Below are positions 27,184 through 42,840 of a stretch of 64,000 nucleotides of DNA, one piece after another. The first letter of the stretch is position 1. Every line of letters begins with the position of its first letter. The translations under genes were made by a program, and so were the position numbers. The notes beneath the pieces were generated by a model that did no database searches, was not told the origin of the DNA, and saw only the letters and a list, made by a program, of their open reading frames with translations. This DNA is from Acidobacteriota bacterium (GTDB taxonomy: Bacteria; Acidobacteriota; Thermoanaerobaculia; Gp7-AA8), in NCBI GenBank assembly GCA_019244185.1, contig JAFATB010000022.1, positions 32,001 to 96,000 on the forward strand, read 5' to 3'.

Positions 27184-27801
27184 ATGGCAACCGATTCGAA
27201 ACGTCCCGGCGCGGCCGGGAGCCCCGATCCGATCGCCGGCGCGTCCGTCGGCGGCGCGTCCGTCGGCGGCACGCATGCGCCGGAAGCGCAGACGACGACC
27301 TACGGCGCGCAGCTGACGACCACGCACGCGTCGACGCACAATCCGACGCCGCCGCCCCCGCCGCGTCCCCGTCCGGACGGCGGCGGCAACGGCGGCAACC
27401 GCGACGACGGGCCGGAGCCGATCATCACCGCGCCGGTCTACTTCAAGCGCCGCTCGCGCAACAAACGGCGCCGCAACAAGAAGAAGTACACGAAGGGCAC
27501 CAAGCCGTTCCAGCGCGTGTCGCGCGGCGCGGTCTGGTCCGGCTACCGCGTGGGCAACGGCTTCGCGCGCGGCTTGCGCACCTTCGCGCGCCGTTCCGAC
27601 CGCTCGGCCAACCGGCGCAAGGACGGCTTCGTGCGCTACGCGCTGCGCGACGCGTCGGCCGGCTTCAACTCCGCCGCGCGGCAGTGGGGACGCGCTCCCG
27701 GCGAGATCGCGAACCGCATCGGTACGCGCCTCGTCCGCAACACCGCGTTCGCCGTGAACAACTTCGTCCCCTTCAACCCGTTCAATTTCGGCCGCCGGTG
27801 A
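27184..27801 (+). CDS. basic low-complexity hypothetical protein (DUF6312-like by recollection)
   Basis: AAGGAGG SD; disordered Pro-rich N-terminus, then KRRSRNKRRRNKKKYTKG...RSANRRKDGF. Confidence 0.7.
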   Translation: MATDSKRPGAAGSPDPIAGASVGGASVGGTHAPEAQTTTYGAQLTTTHASTHNPTPPPPPRPRPDGGGNGGNRDDGPEPIITAPVYFKRRSRNKRRRNKKKYTKGTKPFQRVSRGAVWSGYRVGNGFARGLRTFARRSDRSANRRKDGFVRYALRDASAGFNSAARQWGRAPGEIANRIGTRLVRNTAFAVNNFVPFNPFNFGRR

Positions 27802-27912
27802 CGGTAGCCGGACGGACCGGCCACGGTCCGACCTCGGTGGTGGTTGGTGGTGGCGGACTCCGTGGGTTGCAGGCCCCACGGATCCGCCACCCCATTTTCA
27901 GAAAGTCAACTT

Positions 27913-28461
27913 ATGGACCGAATCAGCAAAGCCGTCTATCGACTCTGGGGCTCCCTCGGCACGAACGACAAGTTGCACGACACGCCGCGCTTCGCCGACG
28001 AGCTCTCCGCTCAATGCAGCACCGGCAAGCTCGCGCTGCGCGACGAGCGCGTCAGCAAGTGGTCGTACGGCGAGCAGCTCGAACACCTCTACCGCAGCAG
28101 TCACTACGTCCTCGACCGGCTCGAGGAAGCGATGAGCGGCGCGAACGCGGACGAGCGCCGCGGCGTGTGGGGCCACGGCCTCATGACCGCCGGCTTCATC
28201 CCGCGCGGCTTCTTTCCGACCATCCCGCCGCTCGAGCCGGAAGGCGGCACGATCGATCAGATCGGACCGCTGCGCGAGTCTCTGAAGAAGCGGCTCGCCG
28301 AAGTCGACCTCGATCTGCGCCGCATCAAGGCCAGTCCCGGCCGCAGCCTCCATCCCCGGATGAAGTGGCTCACCTCGAGCGAATGGTTCTTCTTCGCCGA
28401 CGTCCACCACCGCCATCACCTCTCCATCATGCGCGACATCGCGCGCACCGCCCGCCGCTAG
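27913..28461 (+). CDS. DinB/YfiT family putative metalloenzyme
   Basis: KWSYGEQLEHL, HPRMKWLT and HHRHH match the DinB His-triad pattern. Confidence 0.75.
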   Translation: MDRISKAVYRLWGSLGTNDKLHDTPRFADELSAQCSTGKLALRDERVSKWSYGEQLEHLYRSSHYVLDRLEEAMSGANADERRGVWGHGLMTAGFIPRGFFPTIPPLEPEGGTIDQIGPLRESLKKRLAEVDLDLRRIKASPGRSLHPRMKWLTSSEWFFFADVHHRHHLSIMRDIARTARR

Positions 28462-28471
28462 AGCGACTCCC

Positions 28472-29113
28472 ATGATCCGAAAACTCCTCACCGCGCTCCT
28501 CGCGTCGTGCGCCATCTACGGATTGCCGGCGCTCGCTCATCCGGACATCTTCCGCACGCCGCAGTTCTGGATCCTGATCGCGTTCGCCGTCGGGATCTCC
28601 GCGTTCCAGCCGGCGTACAAGCCGGTCGACGCGTCGGCGCCGAAACACGACCGCGGCACCGCGGCGCAGATCGTCTGGTCGGTGTATCTCACGCAGCTCA
28701 TCGGGATCCTCGAGGCCGTGTTCGTGCGCTATCCCGACAGCTTCCGCTGGGACGCGGTGACGACGGCCGCGCTCGTCCTCATGGCCGCCGGACTGGCGCT
28801 GCGCGTCTGGGCCGTGCTCACGCTCGGCCGCTTCTTCACCTGGTTCATCACGGTGTACGAGGATCACCAGGTGATCCGCACCGGACCGTTCCGCTTCATC
28901 CGCCATCCGTCGTACGGCGGCGCGCTGCTGCTGTTCGTCGGCACGCTGCTCTTCATCCACGCGTGGGTCGGCGCCGCGCTGTCGCTCGCCTTTCAGCTCT
29001 TCGCATACGTCCGCCGCATCCGCTACGAAGAAGCGATGATGATCGAGCGCCTGGGCAAGCCTTACGTCGTGTACACGCGCGAAGTGCGCGCGCTCGTGCC
29101 GCTGCTCTGGTGA
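28472..29113 (+). CDS. isoprenylcysteine carboxyl methyltransferase (ICMT/PEMT) family membrane methyltransferase
   Basis: TLGRFFT...DHQVIRTGPFRFIRHPSYGG...RIRYEEAMM...Y..Y. Confidence 0.88.
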   Translation: MIRKLLTALLASCAIYGLPALAHPDIFRTPQFWILIAFAVGISAFQPAYKPVDASAPKHDRGTAAQIVWSVYLTQLIGILEAVFVRYPDSFRWDAVTTAALVLMAAGLALRVWAVLTLGRFFTWFITVYEDHQVIRTGPFRFIRHPSYGGALLLFVGTLLFIHAWVGAALSLAFQLFAYVRRIRYEEAMMIERLGKPYVVYTREVRALVPLLW

Positions 29114-31098
29114 CGCGGCCGGAGCTCCGCTTCGAGCTCGTCGTCGATTTCGTTCAGGAACTCGATGAGCTTCGCGGCGAAGAGCTCCGGCCGTTCCTCG
29201 TGTGACGAGACGCTCGCGAACGGAATGATCTCGAGCCGCCGCGCGCCCGGAATCGTGTCGAGCAACTTCCTGCCGTACGACGGCGAGTAGTACGCGTTGT
29301 CGGCGCCCCAGACGATCAGCGTCGGCACGTCGAGCTGCGCGAGCGACTGATTGAGCATCGCGACGTCGTTGTCTCGTAGCGTACGAAAGAAGCGCGTGAG
29401 GTGCCGGCGTCGCGCGGGCGTGCCGGCCACGGTGTCGCGATAGCGGCGGATGCGCTCCGGCGTGAGCAGCGAGCGGTCGTGCACGAGTCTTCCGAAGCCG
29501 AACGACGAGCGCGCGACGAGCGGCACGCGCATCAGCGATGCGAGCAGTGCCGCGCCGCCGGGGATGCGCATCAGTGACGCGAGGCGCGCCGCGTGCGGCG
29601 GCGGCCACGGGCCCTGCGCGTCGGAGTCGGAGAGCGTGAGGCTGCGCACGCAATGCGGCCAGCGCACGGCGAAGAACTCCGCGACGACGCAGCCGCTGTC
29701 GTTGCCCACGATGTGCGCGGACGCGATGCCGAGCGCGGATAACAGCCCGCGCACGCGCGCGGCCTGGGCCGACAGCGTGTAATCGGCGGATGGCGGAGCG
29801 TCGGTGTCGCTGATGCCGAGGGTCTCGATGATGAGAGCGCGGCGTTTCGTGGCCACCACGCGCTCGACGACGGCGTCCCACGCGTGCGCGCCTGCGAAGC
29901 CGTGCAGAAACACGACCGGCGTGCCGCTGCCGATGTCTCGGTACGCGACGTTGACGTCGCCGACCTGATGGAAGCGCTTCTCGGTGAACGCCGGATCGTC
30001 GCGCGTGACGGAGACCGCGTGGATCGCGGCGCGTTCGGAGCGCGGCTGTAACTCGTCGTCGATTGCGATGCTCGGCGCGACGCTGCGCGCATCGGCCGCG
30101 CGCACCGCGGTCTCGAGCCATTGCGCGGGATCGGGACGCGTGAGCGCGAACGGCGCGAGCGCGAGATCGGCGCGATAGGTGTCGAACACCGGCCCCTGAT
30201 GCAACAGTTCGAGACTGCGCGCGGGCAGCATCCACGCGGCGATGCGCGGCAGCAGCAGCGCGCCGCGTTTGCGTCCGCGGCCGCGCGCGGCGATCGCCGC
30301 CGCTTCCTTCACCGGCAGCGACGCGTGCCAGCCGCAGGCGAGATGAAATGTCCCGTCCGCGCCGGCGCAGGCGAGAGAGGCGATCGCGGCGCCCACGTAG
30401 TCGGCGGGAACGAAGTCGATGCGCGCGCGGCCGTCGCCGGGAAGCGCCTTCGACGACGCGAGCGCCGCGAGCAGCGGATACGCGCCGCCGAGGTGGAACG
30501 CGGCGCCGTTCTTCGCGCGGCCGAGCGTATGGCTCGGGCGGTAGATGGTCACGCGATCGCTGACGCGCGACTCGCGCAGCCGCACTTCCGCCTCGAACTT
30601 GCTGCGCTCGTACGCGTTGTGGAAGCGCTGGCCGCAGTCGAGATCGAACTCCGTCAGGAGTCCGCGCCGCGCGCCGCCGACGAAGCCGGTCGACAGATGA
30701 TGCAGGCGCAGCACGGGATTCCGTTCGAGGAGACGGATCCAGTTTTCGACCGGCAGCACGTTCGCCTGGCGCGCGAGCTCGAGGTTCTGATCGGTCGTCT
30801 CGCGTTGCGCGCAATGGATGCCGACGTCGAACGACGCCGCGAGCTCGTCCCACGCGCCGATCGAGAGGCCGAAGCGCGGCAGGCGCAGATCGCCCATGAC
30901 GATCGTGACGCGGCGCGCGAGCGGTCCGACGTACGCTTCGAGATGGCTGATGAGGCGCGTGCGCGCGGCTTCGTCGAACGGCAGCAGCAGGCGCAGCGAA
31001 TCCACGTCGGGATGCGACAGCAGCTCGCGCAGCACCTCCGCGCCGGCGAGCGTCGCCGCGCCGGTGAGCAGGATCCGCGACTTCGGGGTCGGTCTCAC
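29062..31098 (-). CDS. thioester-reductase-like SDR fused to alpha/beta hydrolase
   Basis: GTG at 31098 with AAGGAG SD. ILLTGAATLAG, GDLRLPRFGL, YERSK, IYRPS, DFVPADY; then VFLHGF, HIVGNDSG, IVWGADN, HEERP. Confidence 0.8.
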   Translation of the reverse strand: MRPTPKSRILLTGAATLAGAEVLRELLSHPDVDSLRLLLPFDEAARTRLISHLEAYVGPLARRVTIVMGDLRLPRFGLSIGAWDELAASFDVGIHCAQRETTDQNLELARQANVLPVENWIRLLERNPVLRLHHLSTGFVGGARRGLLTEFDLDCGQRFHNAYERSKFEAEVRLRESRVSDRVTIYRPSHTLGRAKNGAAFHLGGAYPLLAALASSKALPGDGRARIDFVPADYVGAAIASLACAGADGTFHLACGWHASLPVKEAAAIAARGRGRKRGALLLPRIAAWMLPARSLELLHQGPVFDTYRADLALAPFALTRPDPAQWLETAVRAADARSVAPSIAIDDELQPRSERAAIHAVSVTRDDPAFTEKRFHQVGDVNVAYRDIGSGTPVVFLHGFAGAHAWDAVVERVVATKRRALIIETLGISDTDAPPSADYTLSAQAARVRGLLSALGIASAHIVGNDSGCVVAEFFAVRWPHCVRSLTLSDSDAQGPWPPPHAARLASLMRIPGGAALLASLMRVPLVARSSFGFGRLVHDRSLLTPERIRRYRDTVAGTPARRRHLTRFFRTLRDNDVAMLNQSLAQLDVPTLIVWGADNAYYSPSYGRKLLDTIPGARRLEIIPFASVSSHEERPELFAAKLIEFLNEIDDELEAELRPRHQSSGTSARTSRVYTT

Positions 31099-32234
31099 AG
31101 GGACACTCCTTGTTCGACGCCGGCGAGCACGTGCGCGGCGGAGTAGCGCGACATCCACCAGCGCTGCAGCGGCAGCGTCGGCTTGAGCAGCGGGTCGTAC
31201 GCCTTGATGTAGAGGTACTGGTCTTCGAGCGTGCCGCCGAGGCGTGTCTTCGGCACGTACGAGCTCTGGCCGAGCCACAGCGTCTGGATGCCGCGCTCGA
31301 TCGCGCGCTGGATGCCGGTGTAGTTGAGCAGGTTGTAAATGAGGCCGCTGTCCGGCAGGTCGTAGTCGATGCCGATGCGTTTGTTCTGCTGCTCGCGCTC
31401 GTCGTAGAAGATCATCAGCGAGCCGGCGATGTGGCCGTCGTTGCGCTCGCAGACGACGAGCTCCGTGCGCGGGCTCCTCGTGCGCGCGCATTCGACGAAG
31501 AAGCGCGGGCCGAGCTCCTCGAACTGGTACTTCGCCTTGAGGAACACCGCGCGATGCAGCGGAAAGACGCGCGGGATCATCGACTCGAAGTCCTCGATCG
31601 CGCGCAGCGTGTACGTTCCCTCGGCCTTGTGGAACTGCTTGCGCGCGTGCTTGCGGCCGTTCTTCGAGAGCTGCTTGGTGAGGTAGTCCTCGAACGACGC
31701 GTACGCGGTGTTGATGCGGATCGTCGGCAGCGAGAAGCCTTCCGTGTAGCCGGCGCGGCGGAACACCGCGCGGTCTTCGGCGGGGAAGTCGCGGTGGATG
31801 TCCTTCAGCATCGCCAGCTGCGCGTGATGCTGTTTGGCCACGCCGTCGAGCGCGCGCAGCAGCAGCTGCAGCGCGGTGGCGTGGTCGGTGAGCTCGGGAT
31901 GCATCGGAATCCAGCCGCGGTCGGAGATGAGGCAGCCGGTGACGGCGACGCGCGTCGCGATCGCAGAGCCGACGCCGCTCACGAGCGCGTCGTAGCCGGT
32001 CTGGATCGCCTTCGGCAGCAGCGCGTTGAAATTCAGATTGCTGCCGACGTAGACCGGCGTGAACGCGACGACGGTGCCGTCGTCTTCGACGGTCAGATAA
32101 CGGACGTGCAGCTCGCCCCACAGCGAGCGTTCCATCGCCCGCAGCAGGCCGAACGAGAAATCGAGTCCGGTCGGCAGCGGCGCGAGCTGCGCGGCCCCGA
32201 TCTCGTCGATCGACTCATAGACGTGCGCGCGCAT
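31095..32234 (-). CDS. FemAB-like/BioF2-like tandem GNAT transferase
   Basis: SFEDYL..LSKNGRK, GIDY, IQRAIERG...LGQSSYVPKTRLG motifs. Confidence 0.8.
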   Translation of the reverse strand: MRAHVYESIDEIGAAQLAPLPTGLDFSFGLLRAMERSLWGELHVRYLTVEDDGTVVAFTPVYVGSNLNFNALLPKAIQTGYDALVSGVGSAIATRVAVTGCLISDRGWIPMHPELTDHATALQLLLRALDGVAKQHHAQLAMLKDIHRDFPAEDRAVFRRAGYTEGFSLPTIRINTAYASFEDYLTKQLSKNGRKHARKQFHKAEGTYTLRAIEDFESMIPRVFPLHRAVFLKAKYQFEELGPRFFVECARTRSPRTELVVCERNDGHIAGSLMIFYDEREQQNKRIGIDYDLPDSGLIYNLLNYTGIQRAIERGIQTLWLGQSSYVPKTRLGGTLEDQYLYIKAYDPLLKPTLPLQRWWMSRYSAAHVLAGVEQGVSL

Positions 32235-33225
32235 GGCTCACGACCTTTCGCTGAAAGGCATCGAACGTGTCGCGGGTGTCGGAGGCGAGATCGCCGGCGA
32301 GCGCGCGCACGCGTTGCCGCGCGTCGTCGCTCATGTCGTACGCAAACGGACCGAAGCCGCGCGCGGCCAGGAACGTCGCCGTCGCGCGGAACGTGCGCGG
32401 CAGCACCGCATCGACCCACGCCGCGTCGGACACGGCGATGGTCCACGTGTTGACCAATTGCTCGATGAACGATAGCGCGGCGTCGACGAGCGCGGGATTC
32501 TGCAGCGCGGGGAGCAGCGCGACGGCGATGAGCGTGCCGAGGTCGAAGGCGGGATCGCCGCAGCAAACGCCTTCGAAGTCGACCAGCGCGACCGGCGCGC
32601 CGCGGCGCACGAGGAGGTTCTTGCTCCAGAGGTCCGCGTGGATGAGGCACTCGCGATGCGCTTCCATCTCCGCGCGGATGCCGTCCCATTGCTCGGCGAA
32701 CACCTGCCGCGCGCCGGGCGCGAGCAGTCCGTCGAACACGATCCTGCGCACGATCGCTTCCTCCTGCGCGGGACGCGGCGACGCCTTGCCGCGCGTGCAC
32801 GCGTGCACCGCGCCGAGGCCGCGGCCGAGCGGTTGCGCGGCCTCGAGGAGCAAATCGAAGTCGTCGCGAATGACGTTGAAGAGCACCGCGCGTCCTTCGC
32901 CGACGTCCGTCATCGCCAGCGCGAACTCGTCGCGGTCGACGAACAGCACTTCCGGGATCAGCACCTCGCCTCCCGCGAACGCGCGGAACTGCCACAGTCC
33001 CGCGGCCTCGGAGAACACGCGCTCGCGCGGCAGCTTCACCGGCAGACGCTTCGGCTGCTCCGGAATGACTTTGAGGTACAGGCTGCGCCCGTAGACTTCG
33101 ACGCGATAGACGTAGTTGATGTTCGACAGCGCGCCGTCCTCGGTCACGGAGACCGGCGCGTCGTCGCGCAGCTTCAGACCACGGCGGACGATCGATGCGA
33201 CGTCGGCGACGACGGCGGTGGTCAT
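32215..33225 (-). CDS. APH/methylthioribose-kinase-like phosphotransferase
   Basis: ATG at 33225 overlaps the upstream TGA; NINYVYRV, LYLK, LIHADLWSKN, VDFE...GDPAFDLG. Confidence 0.85.
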   Translation of the reverse strand: MTTAVVADVASIVRRGLKLRDDAPVSVTEDGALSNINYVYRVEVYGRSLYLKVIPEQPKRLPVKLPRERVFSEAAGLWQFRAFAGGEVLIPEVLFVDRDEFALAMTDVGEGRAVLFNVIRDDFDLLLEAAQPLGRGLGAVHACTRGKASPRPAQEEAIVRRIVFDGLLAPGARQVFAEQWDGIRAEMEAHRECLIHADLWSKNLLVRRGAPVALVDFEGVCCGDPAFDLGTLIAVALLPALQNPALVDAALSFIEQLVNTWTIAVSDAAWVDAVLPRTFRATATFLAARGFGPFAYDMSDDARQRVRALAGDLASDTRDTFDAFQRKVVSHARARL

Positions 33226-34184
33226 GGGATGGCCTCCGGCAACCCCATGTACGTGAGGCGGCTGTTCTGCATCTCCGTCGACCACGTATGCGCGGCGATG
33301 AGGCGCTCTTCGGGCGTCGTGTCGATGAGCCGCTTGCCCGGCCAGATCTCGTAGTCGCCGACGACGTCCGCGTGCTGCTCGAGCCCCGCCTGGAAGAAGA
33401 GCTCGCGCTTGATGATCACGTCTTGCGTCGGCAGTGTCGCCCACAGCTGGCGCCCGCGCGTGATGATGTCGAGGACGTGCGGCTTCGCCTCGGGATGCTC
33501 GCGAAGATAGTCGCGCACCGTCGAGCTCCCGACCGTGAGGTGGCGGATCTCGTCGATGTTCGCGCCGCGCTCGATCTGCGCCGCGGGTGGATCGAGCAGC
33601 CGCCACTTGCGCTCCGACAATTCCGCCGCCGGCGCGAGCACGCCTTCGACGAGGATCGTGAGGATCACCACGCCGGCGATGAAGTCACGCTGATCGCGGA
33701 TCAGCGGCAGCGCGAAGGCTTCGAGCGGATGCAGGATCGCGCGCGCGTCGTCGCCGCTGATGCGCCAGATCGTGTCGAACAGCTCCTGCTCCGGCACGCC
33801 GAGCTCGAGGAGATGTCCGCGGAAGACGCGCGAATGCCGCGCCTCGTCGATGAGCTGCGTGCCGAAGAACTCCATCGTGTAGACGTCCGGCGCCGCGGCG
33901 ATGATGTACGTGATCGAGCGCGTCGCGATTTCCTCGGCGATGGACCGGAACGCGAACTCGTTCATGATCGCCTCGCGCAGCGGCCCGGCCTCGAGCATGT
34001 ACGCCGGCACGCGCGCGTTCGGCGCGTGGCCGTGCACCATGCCCGCGAGCGTGCCCTGCGGCACGGCCGTGAACCAGTAGTCGAGATCGCAGTCGCGCGG
34101 CGTGAGCTCGAGGCGGCTCGCGCCTTCGATGAGCGTCGGCGCCTCCGTCCAATCCGCCTCGCGCGGAATCGTGGTGGTCGTCAT
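33222..34184 (-). CDS. vlmB: VlmB-like non-heme diiron enzyme (putative azoxy synthase)
   Basis: Diiron ligands AEE...DEARH...VEG...DEIRH. LELTPRDCDLDYWFTAVPQGTL and EFAFRSIAEE match VlmB-like proteins as recalled; context supports. Confidence 0.8.
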   Translation of the reverse strand: MTTTTIPREADWTEAPTLIEGASRLELTPRDCDLDYWFTAVPQGTLAGMVHGHAPNARVPAYMLEAGPLREAIMNEFAFRSIAEEIATRSITYIIAAAPDVYTMEFFGTQLIDEARHSRVFRGHLLELGVPEQELFDTIWRISGDDARAILHPLEAFALPLIRDQRDFIAGVVILTILVEGVLAPAAELSERKWRLLDPPAAQIERGANIDEIRHLTVGSSTVRDYLREHPEAKPHVLDIITRGRQLWATLPTQDVIIKRELFFQAGLEQHADVVGDYEIWPGKRLIDTTPEERLIAAHTWSTEMQNSRLTYMGLPEAIP

Positions 34185-34197
34185 CTGGTCAACTCCT

Positions 34198-34662
34198 TTA
34201 CCAAGTGCCGGCGGCCTGGTAGTCGCGCTCGAAGCGGCGATAAGCCTCGTGCTTCACCGGCTCGAAGGCGGTGCCGAACGGCTTGTAGATGTTCCCGAAG
34301 ACGGAGCGGTCGCCGCAGAGATGGATCGGGAACGCGAGCATCGCCCACTCCAGCCGGCCGCCGATCGCGTACCAGATCGCGCAGAACAGCACCGTCGTGG
34401 CGAAGCTGTGGCCGAAGTTGTAGAGCTGGTGGATCACGGTCGGGATCGAGCGGTGCTCGCCCGAGCAGCGGAAGTAGTAGCAGTACAGACCGGGGAACGT
34501 GCCGAGGACGTCGGGCAGCGCGAACGCCCACGCGAAGTGCCACCAGTTCACCTCGCGCACGTGCAGCAGCAGCACGCCGAAGGCGGTGAACATGAGCACG
34601 GCCCAGTCGATGCGCTCGAGCGTGTAGATCGTCGGCGTGTGAAAGAGATTGTGTTTGTCCAT
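34198..34662 (-). CDS. vlmO: VlmO-like small integral membrane protein (putative hydrazine synthase)
   Basis: 154 aa with 4 hydrophobic segments; PD..G, LYNFGHS and PIHLCGDRSVFGNIYKPFGTAFEP; lies between vlmH-like and vlmB-like genes. Confidence 0.75.
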   Translation of the reverse strand: MDKHNLFHTPTIYTLERIDWAVLMFTAFGVLLLHVREVNWWHFAWAFALPDVLGTFPGLYCYYFRCSGEHRSIPTVIHQLYNFGHSFATTVLFCAIWYAIGGRLEWAMLAFPIHLCGDRSVFGNIYKPFGTAFEPVKHEAYRRFERDYQAAGTW

Positions 34663-34680
34663 GGCAGGGGATCCTTTGAT

Positions 34681-35808
34681 TTACGCGACTTGCATCGGCT
34701 TGCCCATGAGGTAGCCGTCGATGGCGGAGGCGACGGAGAGGCGCGACGGCGGATGGAACGCGAGCGCGCGCGCGGCGGCGTAGAGATACGAGACGTCGGG
34801 TGTCTTGATGAAGGCCATGCCGCCGAGGAGCTCGGTGGCGCGGACGGTGACCCGCTCGATGGCCTGCTGCACGGCGAAGCGCACCAGCAGCGACTGCACG
34901 AGGATGCCCTCGCCGCGCTCGCCGGTCTGCATCGCGCGCGCGACGCCTTCGAGCGATGTCATCGCGCCTTCGAGATCGATGGCGAGCTGCATCCGCTCGG
35001 CGATGTCGCCGCGTCCGTGCGTGAAGACTTTTTCCGCGAGCGCGGACGCGACGCCGAGGTACGAGGCGGAGACGAGCAGCTCGAACCAGAGGAAGCCGCC
35101 CGCTTCGACCGCGTCGAGACTCTCCTCGACCTCGGGGAAGAAGAGCTGTTCGTCGGCGATCTGCACGTCGGTGAGGCAGAGCTCCTCGCTCTCCGCGCCG
35201 CGAAGCACGGTGCTGCTCCAGAACGGCTTGCGGGTGATGCCTTCCGCGTCCGCGGGCACGACCGCCACCGCGCGGCGGCTGCCGTTGCCGTTGTTGCTCG
35301 GCACCGAGACGCTCGCGGTGAGGATGTGCATCGAGTTCGACAGGCTGCACGGCTTCTTGCTGCCGTTGATGCGATAGCCGCCGCCGTCCTGCGGCGTGGC
35401 CTTCATCAGCGGATCGAGGATGCTCGTGCCGGTGCGGCCTTCCGCGAACCCCGAGGCGACCAGGAGCTGCCCGCCCGCGATCTGCTGGAGCAGCTCCACC
35501 GTGTAGTCGCCGTAGAAGAGGTACTCGACCAGCGTCGCCACCGAGAAGTTGTGCATCGTCATCGCGATGGCGAGCGACGGCGAGCGCGTGGCCACGGCGC
35601 GGTGGATCTGGATGGCCTCCGCGGGCGTGGCGCCTTTGCCTCCGTGCTCGGCCGGCACGAGCAGCCCCGCGCCCTCGAGCTCGCGGAGGATGGTGAGGCC
35701 GGGATTGCCCGGCTTCTCGATCTCCATGAGCGGGATTTCCTGCAGTTTCGCGTCGAGTGTGGGGAGGAACTTTTCGAGCGTCTCCCGATCCCTTTTCAGG
35801 AAGTTCAT
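34681..35808 (-). CDS. vlmH: VlmH-like flavin-dependent alkylamine N-hydroxylase (acyl-CoA dehydrogenase fold)
   Basis: GLLVPAEHGGKGA...RSPSLAIAMTMHNFS, ASGFAEG, GSKKPCSLS, LLGGMAF, LAFHPPSR resemble isobutylamine N-hydroxylase as recalled. Start at 35808 follows GAGGGG. Confidence 0.82.
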   Translation of the reverse strand: MNFLKRDRETLEKFLPTLDAKLQEIPLMEIEKPGNPGLTILRELEGAGLLVPAEHGGKGATPAEAIQIHRAVATRSPSLAIAMTMHNFSVATLVEYLFYGDYTVELLQQIAGGQLLVASGFAEGRTGTSILDPLMKATPQDGGGYRINGSKKPCSLSNSMHILTASVSVPSNNGNGSRRAVAVVPADAEGITRKPFWSSTVLRGAESEELCLTDVQIADEQLFFPEVEESLDAVEAGGFLWFELLVSASYLGVASALAEKVFTHGRGDIAERMQLAIDLEGAMTSLEGVARAMQTGERGEGILVQSLLVRFAVQQAIERVTVRATELLGGMAFIKTPDVSYLYAAARALAFHPPSRLSVASAIDGYLMGKPMQVA

Positions 35809-35893
35809 GACGTACCCCTCGCTGAATTGTTTTTTGCGCGACCGGTTCATTTATAGAGCTGATCCATAAAAAAGTAAAGATCGAAAAATAGCA

Positions 35894-35922
35894 TTGACAA
35901 GTTCCATAAGGACGCCTATAAA
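35894..35922 (+). promoter_or_regulatory. sigma70-type promoter in the AT-rich divergent control region of the cluster
   Basis: TTGACA (35894-35899), 17 nt, TATAAA (35917-35922); A-tracts upstream (UP-element-like). Confidence 0.6.
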
Positions 35923-35976
35923 TGCAGACTCGCAATCCGGTCAGCTGCAGACTTCAGGAGAACCCACGGACTCACT

Positions 35977-38900
35977 ATGGCGACGCCTTCGCTGGTTCAT
36001 CTGCTTCAGGAGCGCGCGGACGAGCTTCCCGGCCACCGCTCGTACACCTTTCTCGCCGGCGGTGAAGAATCGGAGAGCCTGACGTTCGCGCGGCTGAACC
36101 GGCGCGCGCGCGCCATCGCCGCGCGGCTGCAGCGCCTCGGCGCGAAAGGGGAGCGCGCGCTGCTGCTCTATCCGGCCGGCACCGAATACATCGCCGCGTT
36201 TTACGGCTGCCTGGCCGCGGGAACCGTCGCGGTGCCCGGCTATCCGCCGCGCATGAACCGCAACCTCAACCGCCTCGAGTCCATCATCAAGGATGCGGAG
36301 GCGCGCTTCGCGCTGACTACCGACGCCGTCTACCGCCAGCTCAGCGAGCGCTTCGACGAGTCACCGAGCCTCAAACGCCTGCAGTGGGTCGTCACCGATC
36401 CGATCGCGGAAGATGAGGCGGACGGCTGGACCGATCCGAACGCGACGCGCGAGACGCTCGCGTTTCTCCAGTACACGTCCGCATCGACCTCCGCGCCGAA
36501 GGGCGTCATGGTCACGCACGGCAACATCCTCCACAACCAGGTCCTGATGAAGGAGGCGGTGCAGCACGACCGCAACACGATCGCCGTCTCCTGGCTGCCG
36601 CTGTTCCACGACATGGGACTGATCAGCATCGTCCTCTCGTCGCTGTACAACGGCATCCCGTGCTATCTCGTCGCGCCGGTCGATTTCCTGAAGAAACCGC
36701 GGCTGTGGCTCGAGGCGATCAGCAAGTACGGCGCGACGTTCAGCGGTGCGCCCGACTTCGGCTACCAGCTCTGCGTCGAGCGCATCAGCGCCGAGGAGCG
36801 CGCGAAGCTCGACCTGTCGAAGTGGCGGGTCGCGTTCAACGGCTCGGAGCCGATCCGCTCGGACACGCTGCGCCTCTTCACCGAGACGTTCGCCGAATGC
36901 GGCTTTCGTCCGACCTCGATGTTCCCGTGCTACGGCCTCGCGGAGAACACGCTCTTCGCGAGCGGCCGCTTTCACGACGGTCCGACGTCGTTCTCGCGCG
37001 CGAGTCTCGAGCGTCATCGTCCCGCGCCGGCGACGGAAGGTCATTTGGCGCAGCTCGTCAGTTGCGGCAAGGCGCTGCTCGACTCCCGCATCGTCATCGC
37101 CGATCCGAAGACGCGCCGACGCTGCGGCGAAGGTGAAGTCGGCGAGATCTGGCTGGCCAGTCCGAGCGTCGCGCAGGGCTACTGGAATCAGCCGCGGCTG
37201 AGCGAGGAAACGTTCCGCGCGCAGACGCTCGACGGCGACGGTCCGTTCCTCCGCACCGCGGACCTCGGCTTCTTCCACGCCGGTGAGCTCTTCATCACCG
37301 GCCGCATCAAGGACCTCATCATCATCCGCGGACGCAACCTCTGCCCGCAGGACATCGAACAGACGGTCGAAGCGTGCGACGCGGCGATCCAGCCGACGTT
37401 CGTGGCCGCGGTCGCGGTCGACGCGGGCACCAGCGAGCGGCTGGTCATCGTCGCGGAAATCCGGCGCGAGGCGCGACGCGAGCTCGATACCGAGGAGATC
37501 GTGCGGAAGATCCGGAACGCGGTAGCGGCGGAGTTCGCGGTGGAAGTGTCCGCGGTCGTGCTGCTGCGTCCGGGACAACTGCCGAAAACGTCGAGCGGCA
37601 AGACGCAGCGCGCGCACGTGAAGCAGCAGTTCCTCGACGGCCAGCTGAAGACGGCCATGATCGCGGAGTGGCGTGACGAGAACGCGTTCCGCGCGAACGA
37701 TCCCGAGCCGCCGCGCGCGCCGAAACACGCGCCGACGCAGGAGCGCATCGAGAGCTGGCTCGTGCAGCGCATCGCCGCGCAGACGAAGATCCCCGCGACG
37801 CGCATCGACCGCACCGCCTCGCTCCTCGTCTACGGACTCGACTCGGTCGTGCTCGTGGCGATCTTCGGCGAGCTCGAAGACGCGTTCCGCGTCACGCTCG
37901 ATCTCGACCGCATCTTCCACGGCGAGCCGTCGCTGCGCGAAGTCGCGCAACGCGTGCACGCCGCGACGCGCGCGACGGCGGCGACGGCAGATGTTCCCGC
38001 GCCTGCGCCTGTTGCCGCGCCCGCGCGTCCGCAGCCGGTGCCCACCGAAGCGCCGCCCGCGCAACCGGCATCCGTGCTGCCGATCGCGAAGCCGAAGAAG
38101 CTCACGCTCGGCAACACCGACGCGACGGCCGCGTCTCCGACGCCGAAGCCGGTGCTCGCCGCGGTGCCCGACACCAGACACGAAGAACGCGCGCCGAAGC
38201 CGAAGCATCCCTTCCGCACGCACGTCAATCCCGAGCTCGGGCGCGTGCTCGAGCAGATGGCCATGGACAAGTCGTTCGTGCGCGGCGAGGGGAGCTGGCT
38301 TTGGGATGAAGCGGGGCGCCGCTACCTCGATTTCCTCGCGCAGTACGGCGCGCTACCGTTCGGCTTCAATCCGCCGCGTATCTGGTCGGCGCTGAACGCC
38401 GTGCGCGCGACCGCGGAGCCGAGCTTCGTGCAGCCGTCGTATCTCAACGCCGCGGGCGAGCTCGCGAAACGACTGCTCGCCGTCGCGCCTCCGGGCATGG
38501 CGTACGTGACGTACGCGAACAGCGGCGCGGAAGCGATCGAGGCGGCGATCAAGCTCTGTCGCTCGACGACGAAGCGCCACGACATCCTCGCCGCGGGCAA
38601 CGGCTTCCACGGCAAGACGCTCGGCGCGCTCTCCGCGACGGACAAGGAGAAATACCAGAAAGGCTTCGGCGCGCCGGTACCCGGCTTCCACTACGTCCCG
38701 TACGGCGACGCGGACGCGCTGCGGCGCGCGCTCGCCGGCGGCCGCTACGCCGCGTTCCTCGTCGAGCCGATCCAGGGCGAGGGCGGCATCGTTGAGCCGC
38801 CGGCGGGTTACCTCCGGCTCGCGCGCAAGCTGTGCCGCGAGGCGGGCACGCTCTTCGTCGCCGACGAGATCCAGACGGGACTCGGCCGCACTGGCGCGAT

Positions 38901-40839
38901 GTTCGTCTGCCGCGAGCTCGGCATCACGCCCGACGTGATGACCGTCGCGAAAGCGCTCGGCGGCGGTCTCGTTCCGATCGGCGCGTGCCTCGCCACCGCG
39001 GCCGCGTACAACGAAGACTTCGCGCTGAAGCACACGTCGACGTTCGCGGGGAACACGCTCGCATGCCGCGCCGGCATCGCGACGCTCGATCTGTTGGAAG
39101 CCGACAGCGGCGCGCTCGTCGCGCAGGTGAAAGCGAACGGCGCACGATTGAAGGACGCGCTGCTCGCGCTCGCCGATCGCTATCCCGGTCTCATCGCGGA
39201 AGTCCGCGGACGTGGCTACTTCCTCGGCCTGCGCCTCGGGCTCGACCGTCATTCCGTCGACGACGGTCTCCTCGGCTACCTCGGCGAACAGGAAGCGCTG
39301 ACCGCGATCGTCGTCAGCCATCTGCTGCACGTCGAAGGCGTGCGCGTCGGCTTCACGCTCAATCACGGCGGCGTGCTGCGCATCGAGCCGCCGCTCACGG
39401 CGACGTGGGAGGAGTGCCAGTTCTTCCTCGCCGCGCTCGAGCGCGTGCTCGTGCGCATCGACCGCCGCAACCTCGCCGCGCTGACCTCGCAGGTGACGGG
39501 CTTCCGTCCTGCCGTCGCGGCGGAAGTCGTGAGACCCCGCGTGACGGAGCTCCCGCGAAAAGCGCGGCTCGACGTGCGCGCCGGCGATGGACGCTTCGCG
39601 TTCCTCGTCCATCCGCTGGCGTGGAAGGACTACGGCGACATCGACGAGAGCCTCGCGCCGCTCTCCGGCGAACAGCTGGCGAAACTCTCCGGCGCGCTGG
39701 CCGACAACTTCGATCCGATGGTCGTCGGCGAGACGCGTATCACCGCCGAGAACGGCAAGACCGCGTACGGCGAGTTCATTCTCGTGCCGCGCCGCGCCGA
39801 GGAGCTGCGCGCGCTGCCGCCCGAACAGGCGGTGAGCGAGATCCGCGAAGCCGTGCGCGTGGCGCAGAAGCGCGGCGCGAAGATCGTCGGCCTCGGCGCG
39901 TACACCTCCGTCGTCACGCAGGGCGGCCTCTCACTGGTCGGTGAAGGCCTGCCCGCGATCACCACTGGAAACTCCTACACCGTCATTGCCGCGCGGCAAA
40001 CGATCCGTCTCGCGTCGGCTGATCGAGGCTGGCAGCTCCCGCGACGAACCGTCGCGGTCCTGGGCGCCGGCGGCTCGATCGGGCAGGCGCTGTCCGTCCT
40101 CCTTGCGCGCGACACCGGCCGTTTGCTGCTGATCGGGAACCCCGCACATCCCGACGAAAGCCGTGAGCGTCTGCTGCAGGTCGCGGGACGGATCGTTTGC
40201 TCGCTCGATCAATTGAAAGGATTCGCGCCCGGTTCGGTCGCCAGCTGGGTTGCAGAGCTGGCGATCGAGGCGCCGCAGAAGCCGGATCGCGCGACGTTGA
40301 TTCGCCTGGGCGAGGAGTTCATCGCGCGCACGGGCGCCGTGGAGCTCGGCGTCGACGCCGCGCAGTTCCTGCCGCGCGCGGACGTCGTGGTCTGCTGCAC
40401 GAGCACGACCGAGCGCATGGTCACCGAAGAAACGCTGCGGCGCGAAGCGATCGTGTGCGACGTCTCGCGGCCGTCGAACGTCGGCGCGCACGTGCGCGCG
40501 CGGCGCCCGGACGTCCTCGTGCTCGACGGCGGCGTGGTGCGGTTGCCCGGCAGCTCGCAACTCGGCTTCAACGCCGGCATCGGCAAAACGAACGCGTACG
40601 CCTGCATGGCGGAAACGATGATGCTCGCGCTCGAACAGCGCTATCGCGACGCGAGCCTCGGATTCGATCTTTCGCTCGACAACGTGCTGGAGATGGAACG
40701 GCTCGCGGAAGCAACGGGCTTCCGCGTGGTCTCACGGAAACAGGCCCCCGAAGCATTGACAGTGATGCGACTCCTTAGTCGGGAGGAGAACGAGGCGCAA
40801 GTCCTCGAGGGGGCTCCACCGCTTTCCGCGACGTCGTGA
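35977..40839 (+). CDS. four-domain FAAL-ACP-class III aminotransferase-acyl-ACP-reductase-like protein (putative fatty amine synthase)
   Basis: FAAL: FLQYTSASTSAPKG, SWLPLFHDMGLI, PCYGLAE, LPKTSSGK. ACP: YGLDSV. Aminotransferase: EPIQGEGG, DEIQTGLGRTG, AKALGGG. Reductase: FAFLVHP, GLGAYTS, TTGNSYT, GAGGSIG, YACMAETM. Confidence 0.88.
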   Translation: MATPSLVHLLQERADELPGHRSYTFLAGGEESESLTFARLNRRARAIAARLQRLGAKGERALLLYPAGTEYIAAFYGCLAAGTVAVPGYPPRMNRNLNRLESIIKDAEARFALTTDAVYRQLSERFDESPSLKRLQWVVTDPIAEDEADGWTDPNATRETLAFLQYTSASTSAPKGVMVTHGNILHNQVLMKEAVQHDRNTIAVSWLPLFHDMGLISIVLSSLYNGIPCYLVAPVDFLKKPRLWLEAISKYGATFSGAPDFGYQLCVERISAEERAKLDLSKWRVAFNGSEPIRSDTLRLFTETFAECGFRPTSMFPCYGLAENTLFASGRFHDGPTSFSRASLERHRPAPATEGHLAQLVSCGKALLDSRIVIADPKTRRRCGEGEVGEIWLASPSVAQGYWNQPRLSEETFRAQTLDGDGPFLRTADLGFFHAGELFITGRIKDLIIIRGRNLCPQDIEQTVEACDAAIQPTFVAAVAVDAGTSERLVIVAEIRREARRELDTEEIVRKIRNAVAAEFAVEVSAVVLLRPGQLPKTSSGKTQRAHVKQQFLDGQLKTAMIAEWRDENAFRANDPEPPRAPKHAPTQERIESWLVQRIAAQTKIPATRIDRTASLLVYGLDSVVLVAIFGELEDAFRVTLDLDRIFHGEPSLREVAQRVHAATRATAATADVPAPAPVAAPARPQPVPTEAPPAQPASVLPIAKPKKLTLGNTDATAASPTPKPVLAAVPDTRHEERAPKPKHPFRTHVNPELGRVLEQMAMDKSFVRGEGSWLWDEAGRRYLDFLAQYGALPFGFNPPRIWSALNAVRATAEPSFVQPSYLNAAGELAKRLLAVAPPGMAYVTYANSGAEAIEAAIKLCRSTTKRHDILAAGNGFHGKTLGALSATDKEKYQKGFGAPVPGFHYVPYGDADALRRALAGGRYAAFLVEPIQGEGGIVEPPAGYLRLARKLCREAGTLFVADEIQTGLGRTGAMFVCRELGITPDVMTVAKALGGGLVPIGACLATAAAYNEDFALKHTSTFAGNTLACRAGIATLDLLEADSGALVAQVKANGARLKDALLALADRYPGLIAEVRGRGYFLGLRLGLDRHSVDDGLLGYLGEQEALTAIVVSHLLHVEGVRVGFTLNHGGVLRIEPPLTATWEECQFFLAALERVLVRIDRRNLAALTSQVTGFRPAVAAEVVRPRVTELPRKARLDVRAGDGRFAFLVHPLAWKDYGDIDESLAPLSGEQLAKLSGALADNFDPMVVGETRITAENGKTAYGEFILVPRRAEELRALPPEQAVSEIREAVRVAQKRGAKIVGLGAYTSVVTQGGLSLVGEGLPAITTGNSYTVIAARQTIRLASADRGWQLPRRTVAVLGAGGSIGQALSVLLARDTGRLLLIGNPAHPDESRERLLQVAGRIVCSLDQLKGFAPGSVASWVAELAIEAPQKPDRATLIRLGEEFIARTGAVELGVDAAQFLPRADVVVCCTSTTERMVTEETLRREAIVCDVSRPSNVGAHVRARRPDVLVLDGGVVRLPGSSQLGFNAGIGKTNAYACMAETMMLALEQRYRDASLGFDLSLDNVLEMERLAEATGFRVVSRKQAPEALTVMRLLSREENEAQVLEGAPPLSATS

Positions 40840-42452
40840 GCGCGCTCGGCGAGCTCGCCGCATGGGCGCACGGGCTGCGTCTCGACGACGTGCCGCCGTT
40901 CGTGCGCGCGCGTGCCGTCGACCAACTGCTCTCGACGCTCGGCGCGATGTACGCCGGCGCCGCGAGCGAGCTCGGTCCGAAGCTCGACCTCTTGTTCGCG
41001 GACGTTGCGCCGGAGACGACGCGCGAGGCCATGCGCATGGCCTCGTGGTCGATGGTGCTCGACTACGACGACGTCATGCTCGGCGGTCACACGAGCCATT
41101 CAGCGGTCGTCGTGCCGCTCGCGTTCGCGGACGGGCATTCCGGCGCGGAGCTGCTGCTCGCGCAGATCGTTGCGAACGAGATCGCCGCGCGCGTGAACAT
41201 GGTCTGCGCCGTCGGCTCGACGCGCGGGCAGATGGCGACGCACCTTCATCTCCTCGCCGCCGCCGCCGCGCGTGCGAAGCTCGAAGGTCTCGATGCCGCG
41301 ACGTTCGCGGATGCGCTGTCGTTCGCGCTCGCGTATCCCGCGCAGGCGCTCTATCCCGCGTTTCTCGGCAGCGACGCGAAGGCGCTCTGCGCCGCGCTGC
41401 CAGTCCGCGCCGGCATCGAAGCGGTCGACGCGGTGCGCGCGGGACTGCGCGCGCCGGGTGAGGTACTCGACGGCCCGCGCGGCTTCTTCGCGACGCATGC
41501 GCGCGTGCCGGTGCGCGATTTTCTCGGCGGACTCGGCACGCGCTGGCACACCGCGACGAACAGCTTCAAGATCTACCCCGTCTGCGGCTATCTCTGCTCC
41601 GCGGTCGACGCGACGCTCGACCTCGTGCGCACGTATGACGTCGACGCGGACGACGTCGCGTCCGTCGACGTGCACGCGTCGCTCTTCACGGTCGGCATGG
41701 ACGCGCATTCCGTTCCCTACATTGACGGCCCGCGCTCACCGATCGCGGCGCTCACGTTCTCGACGCCGTTCGTGATCGCGTCTGCGATCCGCGCGCGTGC
41801 ATTCACGCCGGCGCAGCTCGAACGCGCGTGGATCGAAGACGAGCGCGTGTGGCAGCTCGCCGCGCGCGTACAAACGCGCCACGATCCGCGCCTCACGCGC
41901 GACGCGCTCACCGCGGACATCCCGATCGGCGCCGCGCTACGCCGCGTGAAGAAGTGGCAGGCCGGGGGATTCGCGTGGAGCATTGCCGCGACGGCATTCG
42001 GCCGCGCGGGGCGTCTGCGCCGTCCGGTCGAAACGCTGCGTCTCATCGCGGGACTCACCGCTGCGGCAGGCGATCGCGCGCCGATGGAGTTCGAGCGCGC
42101 GACGAAGCCGATGGGCGCGCGCGTCGCGATGCGTCTGCGCGACGGCCGCACGCTCGAACGCGAGGTGTCGATCCCGCGCGGCTTCGCGGGCGGCATTGAT
42201 GACATCCGCACGCTGATGATTCACAAGTTCCTCGCCGCCGCCGCGCCGGAGCTCGGCAGCGCGCGGGCCGCCACCGCCGCCGTCGCGCTCGAACACTACG
42301 AGTCGCTCTCGCCCGACGGCGTCGCGCGCCTCGTCGACGTGCTCGCGCGCGAGACGCCGCCGTTCACCCGCGCATCAGCCGCGGCGGCAGCATCCACTCC
42401 AGCGATGCGTGGCGGCCGCTCCAGCGAAGGCCGTAGCAGCCGCCTTTCTTGA
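40836..42452 (+). CDS. MmgE/PrpD family protein (putative VlmK-like lyase)
   Basis: GTGA overlap; LDYDD...GHTS, FKIYPVCGYLCSAVDA, FSTPFVIA, REVSIPRG...KF. Confidence 0.85.
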   Translation: MSALGELAAWAHGLRLDDVPPFVRARAVDQLLSTLGAMYAGAASELGPKLDLLFADVAPETTREAMRMASWSMVLDYDDVMLGGHTSHSAVVVPLAFADGHSGAELLLAQIVANEIAARVNMVCAVGSTRGQMATHLHLLAAAAARAKLEGLDAATFADALSFALAYPAQALYPAFLGSDAKALCAALPVRAGIEAVDAVRAGLRAPGEVLDGPRGFFATHARVPVRDFLGGLGTRWHTATNSFKIYPVCGYLCSAVDATLDLVRTYDVDADDVASVDVHASLFTVGMDAHSVPYIDGPRSPIAALTFSTPFVIASAIRARAFTPAQLERAWIEDERVWQLAARVQTRHDPRLTRDALTADIPIGAALRRVKKWQAGGFAWSIAATAFGRAGRLRRPVETLRLIAGLTAAAGDRAPMEFERATKPMGARVAMRLRDGRTLEREVSIPRGFAGGIDDIRTLMIHKFLAAAAPELGSARAATAAVALEHYESLSPDGVARLVDVLARETPPFTRASAAAAASTPAMRGGRSSEGRSSRLS

Positions 42453-42840
42453 GATCGACGTCGCCGCTCATGCCCGTGAGCGAAAGCATGAACGCGGAGA
42501 GCGTCGGCTCGTGGCCGACAAAGTACGCGGCCGGTTCCTTGACGTCGTGCAGGAACTCACGGAACGCATCGGGATCGCTGCCCGGCACGAGCGCATCCGT
42601 GATGTAAAACGCGAGCTTGCCGCCGTATGCCTCCGCCACCCACGCCCCCGTCTCCCGCGCGCGCACCAGCGGGCTGCTGTAGATCGCCTCGGCCTCGGGG
42701 ACGAGGCGCGCGAGCGTCTTCGCGATCTCCTGCATCTTGGCGTTGCCTTCCGCCGTGAGACGGCGTTCGGCATCGGCCTTGTGGCCTTTGTCTTCGGCGA
42801 TGCCGTGGCGGAGGAGGATGAGCAGTCCGTCGCGTTTCAT
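42364..42840 (-). CDS. sixA: SixA-like histidine phosphatase
   Basis: ATG at 42840 overlaps the patatin stop; LLRHGIAE, RRLTAEG, SSPLVRARET, VGHEP, LKKGG. Confidence 0.85.
   Translation of the reverse strand: MKRDGLLILLRHGIAEDKGHKADAERRLTAEGNAKMQEIAKTLARLVPEAEAIYSSPLVRARETGAWVAEAYGGKLAFYITDALVPGSDPDAFREFLHDVKEPAAYFVGHEPTLSAFMLSLTGMSGDVDLKKGGCYGLRWSGRHASLEWMLPPRLMRG

Follow-up and report, generated by a model that had tools for sequence, protein, structure and literature searches.

A likely valanimycin/azodyrecin-type gene cluster, probably for a long-chain azoxy lipid, in an Acidobacteriota genome

A 64,000-nucleotide stretch of DNA from a soil Acidobacteriota bacterium (assembly GCA_019244185.1, contig JAFATB010000022.1, positions 32,001 to 96,000; hereafter, the window) carries a chromosomal locus that we consider likely to be a valanimycin/azodyrecin-type cluster, one that draws on a fatty amine to make an aliphatic nitrogen-nitrogen (N-N) compound, most probably of the azoxy type. 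Judged from its genes, the product is probably a long-chain azoxy lipid of a kind not yet described outside the actinobacteria. The genome measures 5.3 Mb in 26 contigs, and the window is part of contig 7; coordinates below are positions in the window, and real genes were picked out by third-position GC (GC3). An earlier, sequence-only reading had placed the cluster at 29062-42452, with six genes on the minus strand and two on the plus strand, and these eight genes were recovered as open reading frames (ORFs) at the coordinates and with the gaps claimed. Its domain assignments held as well: the Pfam families ACAD, APH, FemAB_like/Acetyltransf_6, NAD_binding_4 plus Abhydrolase_1, AMP-binding/PP-binding/Aminotran_3, and the N- and C-terminal MmgE/PrpD domains were all found.

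The core of the locus is a row of three minus-strand genes that the sequence-only reading had called VlmH-, VlmO-, and VlmB-like, a call borne out by their homology to a Streptomyces cluster and to a solved protein structure. The VlmB-type protein, a predicted non-heme diiron oxygenase of 320 amino acids (33222-34184), matched the PDB entries 6d9f/8wvr, "Putative VlmB homolog," over residues 4-319 (E 2.4e-106); this was the sole solved sequence matched, and no Pfam or NCBIfam model reached the protein. It is 56-65% identical to actinobacterial homologs, which in Streptomyces bear the RefSeq label "VlmB-like protein," and residues E84, E114, H117, E180, E188, D211, E212, and H215 are invariant in the homolog alignment. 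VlmB and AzdB have been reported to form the azoxy group (PMC11705231; bioRxiv 10.1101/2023.10.13.562208).

As a reference for the other two proteins we used a RefSeq-annotated Streptomyces plasmid cluster that encodes, in this order, a DUF2156 protein, an acyl-CoA dehydrogenase (ACAD)-family protein, a hypothetical protein, a flavin reductase, a VlmB-like protein, and a seryl-tRNA synthetase. The VlmO-type membrane protein of 154 amino acids (34198-34662, minus strand) is 38% identical (BLASTP, E 5e-26) to the hypothetical protein encoded between the ACAD-family and flavin reductase genes. Its residues D51, H85, H114, and D118 are shared by all 81 aligned homologs and, given small loop deletions in the actinobacterial sequences, appear to fit D51, H82, H110, and D114 of VlmO, which are described as iron ligands essential by mutagenesis (PMC11705231). 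Even its weak match to DUF4260 (E 0.11) has a counterpart, since the same weak likeness was reported for Ady6/VlmO (PMC9379638). The third gene (34681-35850, minus strand; likely start, an ATG at 35808) encodes an ACAD-fold, VlmH-type protein that aligns along its entire length with the ACAD-family protein of the reference cluster (44% identity in 381 columns, E 2e-107), the latter being a neighbor of VlmB-like genes rather than a characterized VlmH. The best hits named beforehand as speaking against a Vlm-type locus, ordinary acyl-CoA dehydrogenases and ferritins, were not what we obtained: the closest solved relatives of the ACAD-fold protein are DszC-type flavin monooxygenases, not acyl-CoA dehydrogenases, and those of the diiron protein are the VlmB-homolog structures. 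The gene order H-O-B is that of the reference cluster, which has a flavin reductase gene between O and B. Thus, as far as homology can tell, the three proteins that form and oxidize the N-N bond in the valanimycin and azodyrecin pathways are present here, in the same order.

To place these genes among their relatives, we searched one genome per species. Of 343 pattern matches, 301 encode a VlmB relative, and the best 80 of these 301 loci, 11 from Acidobacteriota and 69 from Actinomycetota, were kept, each fetched as the VlmB match plus 10 kb on either side. A VlmO-type gene (33-47% identical by tblastn) adjoins the VlmB homolog in 67 of the 69 Actinomycetota loci, and a VlmH-type gene is present in 62 of them. 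In the eight closest Acidobacteriota loci (L004 to L011), the ACAD-fold protein is 74-85% identical.

The amine that would enter this pathway should come from a 1620-amino-acid protein encoded on the plus strand (35977-40839). The sequence-only reading had called it a fatty-amine synthase, and all four domains expected of such an enzyme are there: a fatty-acid--AMP ligase (FAAL) domain (NCBIfam, E 1.7e-130; Pfam AMP-binding), an acyl carrier protein (ACP; Pfam PP-binding) with a GLDSV motif at residue 620, a class-III transaminase (Pfam Aminotran_3, E 1.9e-85) between the ACP and the reductase, and a C-terminal reductase of the acyl-ACP reductase (AAR) type. The last of these, spanning 445 residues, matched the N-terminal part of the PigE model (E 1.4e-39), the long-chain acyl-ACP reductase model (E 1.4e-22), and the solved PigE and AAR chains, PDB 4ppm and 6jzq; it carries a GAGGSIG motif at residue 1363. 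In the tambjamine pathway, PtTamA (adenylation-ACP) and PtTamH (transaminase plus AAR-type reductase) turn fatty acids into amines in vitro (PMC9594044). That the 1620-residue protein follows the TamA/TamH domain logic in a single chain, and that it acts as a fatty-amine synthase, can therefore soundly be inferred from its domains. Such fusions are not confined to this genome: four-domain FAAL/ACP/transaminase proteins occur in Wenzhouxiangellaceae and Allohahella records (~40% identity over 98% of the query) and in a record labeled "Proteobacteria bacterium" (43% over 98%), and an Alteromonadaceae record matches at 46% over just 52% of the query.

The reductase domain also allows a different story, in which the locus serves to make hydrocarbons or fatty aldehydes: a fatty aldehyde would come from the AAR-type reductase, the diiron protein would be an aldehyde-deformylating oxygenase, and no N-N bond would be made. 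The C-terminal domain is indeed related to the cyanobacterial acyl-ACP reductase, and 6d9f was reportedly deposited in a study of aldehyde-deformylating activity. We nevertheless regard this story as extremely improbable. A class-III transaminase sits between ACP and reductase, as it does in TamH, an amine-forming enzyme; the diiron gene has VlmH- and VlmO-type genes at its flanks in every one of the 12 other Acidobacteriota loci, besides the large majority of Actinomycetota loci noted above; and VlmB and AzdB, as cited above, have themselves been shown to form azoxy groups.

The genes are tightly packed. On the minus strand, the VlmH-, VlmO-, and VlmB-type genes are followed by those for an APH-family kinase (32215-33225), a FemAB-like GNAT protein (31095-32234), and a fusion of a thioester-reductase-type short-chain dehydrogenase/reductase with an alpha/beta hydrolase (29062-31098). 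The spacings along this run are 18, 13, -4, -20, and -4 nt, the proposed starts are all ATG or GTG, and several are preceded by an AGGAG-like stretch. On the plus strand, the gene for an MmgE/PrpD-family, VlmK-like lyase (40836-42452) overlaps the 3' end of the 1620-residue gene by 4 nt. Both runs diverge from a 126-nt intergenic region (35851-35976) that had been described as AT rich and indeed contains 42.9% GC, compared with 68.1% for the window. Reading this spacer by eye, we noted TTGACA, 17 nt, and TATAAA at 35894-35922, facing the plus-strand gene; a consensus promoter scan of 35700-36100 returned zero sites, because the scan demands T as the last base of the second hexamer.

Two of the remaining genes may account for the tailoring of the amino acid side chain. 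The kinase matched Pfam APH (E 1e-14) and, among the 80 loci kept, was seen in Acidobacteriota loci only, whereas VlmJ-type kinases belong to PF19279 (PMC9379638); the three PF19279 matches of this genome all lie outside the cluster, the nearest one (C7:321076) far from the window. The MmgE/PrpD protein matched both Pfam domains of its family (MmgE_PrpD_N, E 4.5e-22; MmgE_PrpD_C, E 1.8e-18), but the match to the true PrpD model of NCBIfam is weak (29 bits versus a cutoff of 950). It is 31-44% identical to the MmgE/PrpD proteins encoded in actinobacterial VlmB loci; other members of the family, from an acidobacterial genome, reach only 28-29%. Across the 12 other Acidobacteriota loci, APH and MmgE/PrpD genes are both present in nine and both absent in two (L036 and the G005 locus, where PrpD has no match anywhere in the genome), and one short contig was left unscored; as the loci are relatives, this covariation is suggestive rather than statistical. 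We propose that the APH kinase phosphorylates a side-chain hydroxyl, as VlmJ does, and that the MmgE/PrpD protein, by its sequence, acts as a VlmK-like phosphate-eliminating lyase.

The GNAT protein matched PF04339 (FemAB_like) with 39.6 bits (cutoff, 27) and PF13480 (Acetyltransf_6) with 31 bits (cutoff, 22), and in the ESM Atlas it fell solely into GNAT clusters with the same two Pfam families. A kinase, a FemAB-like GNAT, and an MmgE/PrpD protein had all been claimed for the locus, and each was confirmed by its Pfam domains; the cautious wording "FemAB-like" and "a kinase," which stopped short of homology to VlmA or VlmJ, was apt, as neither protein is detectably related to the VlmA or VlmJ family. 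The relatives of the GNAT protein form a tight family of 170 proteins at E <= 0.001, of which the best 120 are at least 61% identical and, where named, come from Acidobacteriota. In 10 of the 12 other Acidobacteriota loci, the GNAT gene belongs to the VlmB gene run, with VlmH three or four genes upstream of it. VlmA, a member of PF09924 (DUF2156) (PMC9379638), shows the opposite distribution: by tblastn, 57 of the 69 Actinomycetota loci yielded a VlmA-type gene, and the Acidobacteriota loci yielded none. Given this gene position, and since VlmO needs an aminoacyl ester of the hydroxylamine, we propose that the GNAT protein is the hydroxylamine O-aminoacyltransferase, perhaps drawing on aminoacyl-tRNA as Fem transferases do. 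This assignment is clearly less certain than that of the Vlm-type N-N cluster itself, and the use of aminoacyl-tRNA is a guess, as neither similarity to VlmA nor a characterized PF04339 member turned up.

Several observations weigh against this scheme, most of them concerning the aminoacyl transfer. Profile-profile alignment (hhalign) of 23 GNAT homologs with VlmA-type sequences revealed no similarity (probability 0.23, E 0.26), and neither did BLASTP against an annotated DUF2156 protein (E 6.6); a profile search and phmmer against the PDB gave nothing meaningful, the best hits being phage baseplate proteins (E 0.018). The listed literature naming PF04339 included no characterized member of the family. 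PF09924 is absent from the cluster, and the genome has two matches to it on other contigs (C2 and C5), in ORFs of 876 amino acids and of 531 amino acids (the latter on C5), either of which could aminoacylate. In addition, the L041 genome encodes VlmH, VlmO, VlmB, APH, ICMT, and PrpD proteins but no GNAT of this family genome-wide at E <= 1e-10, so the GNAT protein may not be an obligatory acyl donor enzyme. Then there is the reductase-hydrolase fusion (NAD_binding_4, E 1.2e-27; Abhydrolase_1, E 3e-13), the N-terminal half of which has the terminal reductases of polyketide synthases and nonribosomal peptide synthetases (NRPSs) as its closest solved relatives (8v1x; MxaA, 4u7w). Its thioester reductase part occurs in 10 of the 12 other Acidobacteriota loci, each time next to the GNAT gene, with the reductase half alone aligned in L004, L007, L015, L036, and L092. 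This conserved reductase has no place in the proposed scheme, as the large enzyme already carries its own. The cluster also encodes no flavin reductase, the sole PF01613 match of the genome being on contig C14. Finally, no RNA data were found.

In an alternative reading, VlmH, VlmO, and VlmB still make an N-N compound but a VlmA-family PF09924 protein from elsewhere in the genome esterifies the hydroxylamine. The GNAT protein and the thioester reductase would then perform other tailoring, e.g., acylation and reduction, and the product would not be an azoxy-acrylate methyl ester. The two PF09924 proteins on C2 and C5, the dissimilarity of the GNAT protein to VlmA, and the persistence of the rest of the gene set in L041 all agree with this view, and the GNAT and thioester reductase genes, present together in 10 loci and absent together from L041, suggest by this pattern that they act as a pair. 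However, judged on size alone, the 876-residue protein resembles a membrane lipid aminoacylase of the MprF kind and not the ~340-residue VlmA type. Moreover, the GNAT gene keeps to the VlmB gene run in Acidobacteriota much as VlmA keeps to the VlmB locus in Actinomycetota, and G016, a same-genus genome (~90% complete) whose cluster includes the GNAT gene, has no PF09924 match. On balance we consider esterification by an outside PF09924 protein unlikely.

Returning to the reading of the locus as a valanimycin/azodyrecin-type cluster with a GNAT protein of its own, we asked how widely such a gene set is found. The sequence-only reading had suggested that failure of the genes to co-occur in other genomes would count against it; instead, the set recurs in 12 other Acidobacteriota genomes. 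VlmH, VlmO, and VlmB are encoded in all 12 loci, the GNAT protein, the thioester reductase, and the APH kinase in 10 each, and PrpD in or beside 9. The eight best VlmB loci (73-77% identity) are all metagenome-assembled genomes of Acidobacteriota, and in the closest loci, labeled Thermoanaerobaculia, Pyrinomonadaceae, Bryobacterales, and Holophagales, identities range from 54 to 85%; a same-genus genome with the cluster (L005, which is G016) is labeled a Thermoanaerobaculia bacterium. These relatives place the contig in the Acidobacteriota, not the actinobacteria; together with a TonB-dependent receptor and an OmpA-domain protein that the window encodes, they also bear out the earlier suggestion of a diderm host. 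Among metagenome-derived proteins, we found 1507 VlmB relatives; the best 120 (90%-identity clusters) are all at least 69% identical, and the named ones are from Acidobacteriota, so that the acidobacterial VlmB type is common in this material. On plasmids, all 13 VlmB matches were from Streptomyces. The eight listed sequencing runs with this DNA are labeled rhizosphere, rock, root, and soil metagenomes (three possible sources).

Two of the loci differ in makeup. In L092 (G005:C92:62000-81900, ~7400-19100), which belongs to a same-genus genome, we observed a second, divergent Vlm-type locus (VlmB, 53% identical) with genes for a PigE-like transaminase protein of 863 amino acids, VlmH/O/B, a short reductase, a GNAT protein, a DUF5996 protein, and an asparagine-synthase-like protein, and no APH gene. 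L041 (391-12646) begins with MacB- and HlyD-type export genes, followed by split FAAL-ACP and transaminase-reductase genes, VlmH/O/B, APH, and ICMT; its PrpD gene lies just beyond the fetched range.

Could the locus be a decaying or silent remnant of a cluster acquired horizontally from an actinobacterium, making nothing? Its spread is patchy: a VlmB match occurs in only 2 of 24 other same-genus genomes, and an even sample of 400 further genomes from the whole phylum contained none. Furthermore, no RNA run with this DNA is listed, which says nothing on expression. Yet the genes are all intact ORFs with translationally coupled starts, they are retained at 54-85% identity across loci of four labeled acidobacterial groups, and the best 120 database relatives of VlmB are, as noted above, close and acidobacterial where named. 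A quick maximum-likelihood tree of VlmB (midpoint, i.e., arbitrary, root; L002 omitted as a duplicate of L005) is divided by a branch with SH-aLRT support of 87 into 68 Actinomycetota rows and a group made up of the 13 Acidobacteriota rows and a single long-branch row from Streptomyces. As the tree separates the two phyla with this single exception, it argues against a recent import from Streptomyces, without settling the history of the cluster. A dead remnant is thus very improbable in our view.

The extent of the cluster had to be redrawn in part. Its right edge at 42452 stood, as the SixA-like and patatin-like genes that follow do not recur with the cluster, but its left edge did not, as the conserved block reaches to ~23293. 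Directly left of the core lies a plus-strand gene for an ICMT/PEMT-family membrane methyltransferase (28472-29113; ICMT, E 2.7e-19; PEMT, E 5.6e-16), which converges with the reductase-hydrolase gene such that their 3' ends overlap by 52 nt (29062-29113). It is found at 47-77% identity in 7 of the 12 Acidobacteriota loci and matched the NCBIfam model for isoprenylcysteine O-methyltransferase with E 1e-18, below the model's cutoff; the enzyme is a candidate carboxyl O-methyltransferase for the product. At the far left, an FAD-dependent, halogenase-related oxidoreductase (23293-24675, plus strand; FAD_binding_3, E 7.4e-26), probably a tailoring enzyme, has the flavin-dependent halogenases 5bul, CmlS, and CndH as its closest solved relatives. 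The WxWxIP motif, a halogenase signature, is absent from it. Homologs with 65-77% identity stand beside the cluster in 5 of the 12 loci, at two different positions, and in the two Pyrinomonadaceae loci directly before the large gene. The sequence-only reading missed this leftward extension with its ICMT-type gene and halogenase-like flavoprotein, the lack of a flavin reductase in the cluster, and the GNAT-linked thioester reductase.

Between the flavoprotein and the methyltransferase lie four further genes. An ABC1/UbiB-type atypical kinase (24736-26793, minus strand; Pfam ABC1, E 2.4e-51), whose membership in the pathway is uncertain, is conserved at 55-60% identity and in the same relative position in L005, L007, L010, and L011, and at 43% elsewhere in L006. 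The other three are on the plus strand: a small DUF6200 protein (26839-27147; E 2.8e-15), with tblastn matches in L005, L006, L007, L010, and L011; an ORF without a Pfam family (27184-27801; GC3, 0.92), weakly conserved with partial matches (46-52%) in L005, L007, and L011; and a DinB-superfamily protein (27844-28461; DinB_2, E 3.3e-06), 49-63% identical and encoded beside the ICMT gene in L005, L006, L007, L010, and L011. These left-hand genes recur with the cluster in loci labeled Thermoanaerobaculia, Bryobacterales, and Holophagales.

Farther out, the minus strand to the right (42837-50111) encodes a patatin-like protein of 1252 amino acids and an NRPS-like adenylation-thiolation-thioesterase protein (46653-50111), neither conserved with the cluster in related loci. 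In the left part of the window, the minus-strand gene at 10942-17118 encodes a protein of 2058 amino acids with seven DUF11 repeats, a Calx-beta domain, and an endonuclease/exonuclease/phosphatase domain, and several high-GC3 ORFs on the opposite strand are probably its shadows; at 4149-7114 (plus strand), a BlaR1/M56-type peptidase gene is followed, in an overlapping stretch, by a beta-lactamase-family (PF00144) gene.

From these genes we can sketch a pathway. The 1620-residue enzyme would adenylate a fatty acid, load it on its own ACP, reduce the thioester to the aldehyde, and transaminate this to the fatty amine, as its domain homology to TamA/TamH indicates. By homology, the VlmH-type monooxygenase would N-hydroxylate the amine, with a reductase from elsewhere in the genome supplying the reduced flavin. 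An amino acid would then be esterified to the hydroxylamine oxygen, possibly from aminoacyl-tRNA, with the GNAT protein as a candidate; as this protein is no VlmA homolog, we only infer this step. The VlmO-type membrane enzyme, in which the metal ligands are conserved, would rearrange the ester to a hydrazine, which the VlmB-type diiron enzyme, given its strong homology, would oxidize to the azo and on to the azoxy compound. The APH kinase might then phosphorylate the side-chain hydroxyl and the VlmK-like MmgE/PrpD protein, by homology, eliminate it to yield an azoxy-acrylate, the carboxylate of which the ICMT-type enzyme may methylate. Provisional in this sketch are the aminoacyl transfer by the GNAT protein, the choice of amino acid, the length of the amine chain, and the azoxy-acrylate end structure.

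How does this locus compare with known systems? With the valanimycin (vlm) cluster of Streptomyces viridifaciens and Kitasatospora setae it shares the VlmH, VlmO, and VlmB homologs in H-O-B order, an MmgE/PrpD-family VlmK-like gene, and the presence of a kinase. In contrast, it is without VlmA (PF09924/DUF2156), the flavin reductase VlmR, a VlmJ-type (PF19279) kinase, and the seryl-tRNA synthetase VlmL, and has a FemAB-like GNAT and an APH kinase instead; its amine should derive from a fatty acid by way of the fused enzyme and not from the decarboxylation of valine, and its host is a diderm Acidobacteriota bacterium. The azodyrecin (azd/ady), elaiomycin, and KA57-A clusters of Streptomyces have the VlmH/VlmO/VlmB core in common with it. 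The azodyrecin type also has a long-chain, fatty-acid-derived alkyl part made by a reductase and a class-III transaminase, as proposed here. The azodyrecin reductase (AzdP) and transaminase (AzdQ) for the fatty amine (bioRxiv 10.1101/2023.10.13.562208), however, are separate proteins, whereas one four-domain protein would cover the amine route here; azodyrecin synthesis also relies on a VlmA-type aminoacyl transferase, for which this cluster has no gene. The carboxylate of azodyrecin is methylated by Ady1, a PF04072 methyltransferase (PMC9379638); the ICMT-type protein, although unrelated, could play that role here, and the kinase/PrpD pair suggests a dehydro-amino-acid end as in valanimycin, unlike azodyrecin. 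TamA plus TamH of tambjamine YP1 biosynthesis in Pseudoalteromonas tunicata and PigE of prodigiosin biosynthesis offer the same domain set for turning a fatty acid into a fatty amine. Here, all four domains are in one chain (L041 carries the two-gene split of TamA/TamH), and the amine would feed an N-N pathway and not a bipyrrole condensation.

The sequence-only reading had held that known clusters of this type are actinobacterial and that the present architecture is undescribed, and our literature searches, which found no acidobacterial description, agree. In the portions of the sources available, the characterized VlmO/VlmB-type pathways are all from Streptomyces or Kitasatospora (PMC11705231, PMC9379638, PMC13755311, and bioRxiv 10.1101/2023.10.13.562208); the clusters mined in these sources are actinobacterial too, and the Beilstein survey of clusters covered actinobacteria only (PMC9379638). 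No literature linking valanimycin or azoxy biosynthesis with Acidobacteria was found, the listed papers with both an azoxy term and the phylum dealing with azoxystrobin, azoxymethane, and the like, although the genome mining by Shi et al. (JACS 2023), the primary VlmO/VlmB paper, may mention nonactinobacterial homologs, and the listed titles on azoxy biosynthesis since 2022 include no nonactinobacterial cluster. Public annotation already labels some acidobacterial proteins "VlmB-like protein," so the homology is visible to annotation pipelines, though we found it undiscussed.

Natural azoxy compounds, such as valanimycin, elaiomycin, the azodyrecins, and the jietacins, are rare and bioactive, and the Acidobacteria are a dominant soil phylum that is chemically almost unexplored. 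A broader proposal, to which we give somewhat less than an even chance, is that Acidobacteria have their own pathway to long-chain azoxy lipids, in which a separate lineage of VlmH, VlmO, and VlmB works with unrelated proteins for three steps: the FemAB-like GNAT, the APH kinase, and the four-domain amine synthase. If this is true, PF04339, a so far uncharacterized family, would gain a testable function and its first assigned reaction, the O-aminoacylation of a hydroxylamine, and the GNAT-adjacent thioester reductase would mark an extra step absent from known azoxy pathways. The single-chain route from fatty acid to amine would be of interest for biocatalysis, as has been argued for the two-protein TamA/TamH form (PMC9594044). 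The replacement of VlmA and VlmJ by unrelated enzymes would amount to a natural experiment, showing H, O, and B to be constrained and the other steps to be replaceable. A conserved acidobacterial version of the pathway would bring a diderm phylum into the range of enzymatic N-N bond formation and would suggest that soil and rhizosphere communities hold a new family of lipid-like azoxy metabolites.

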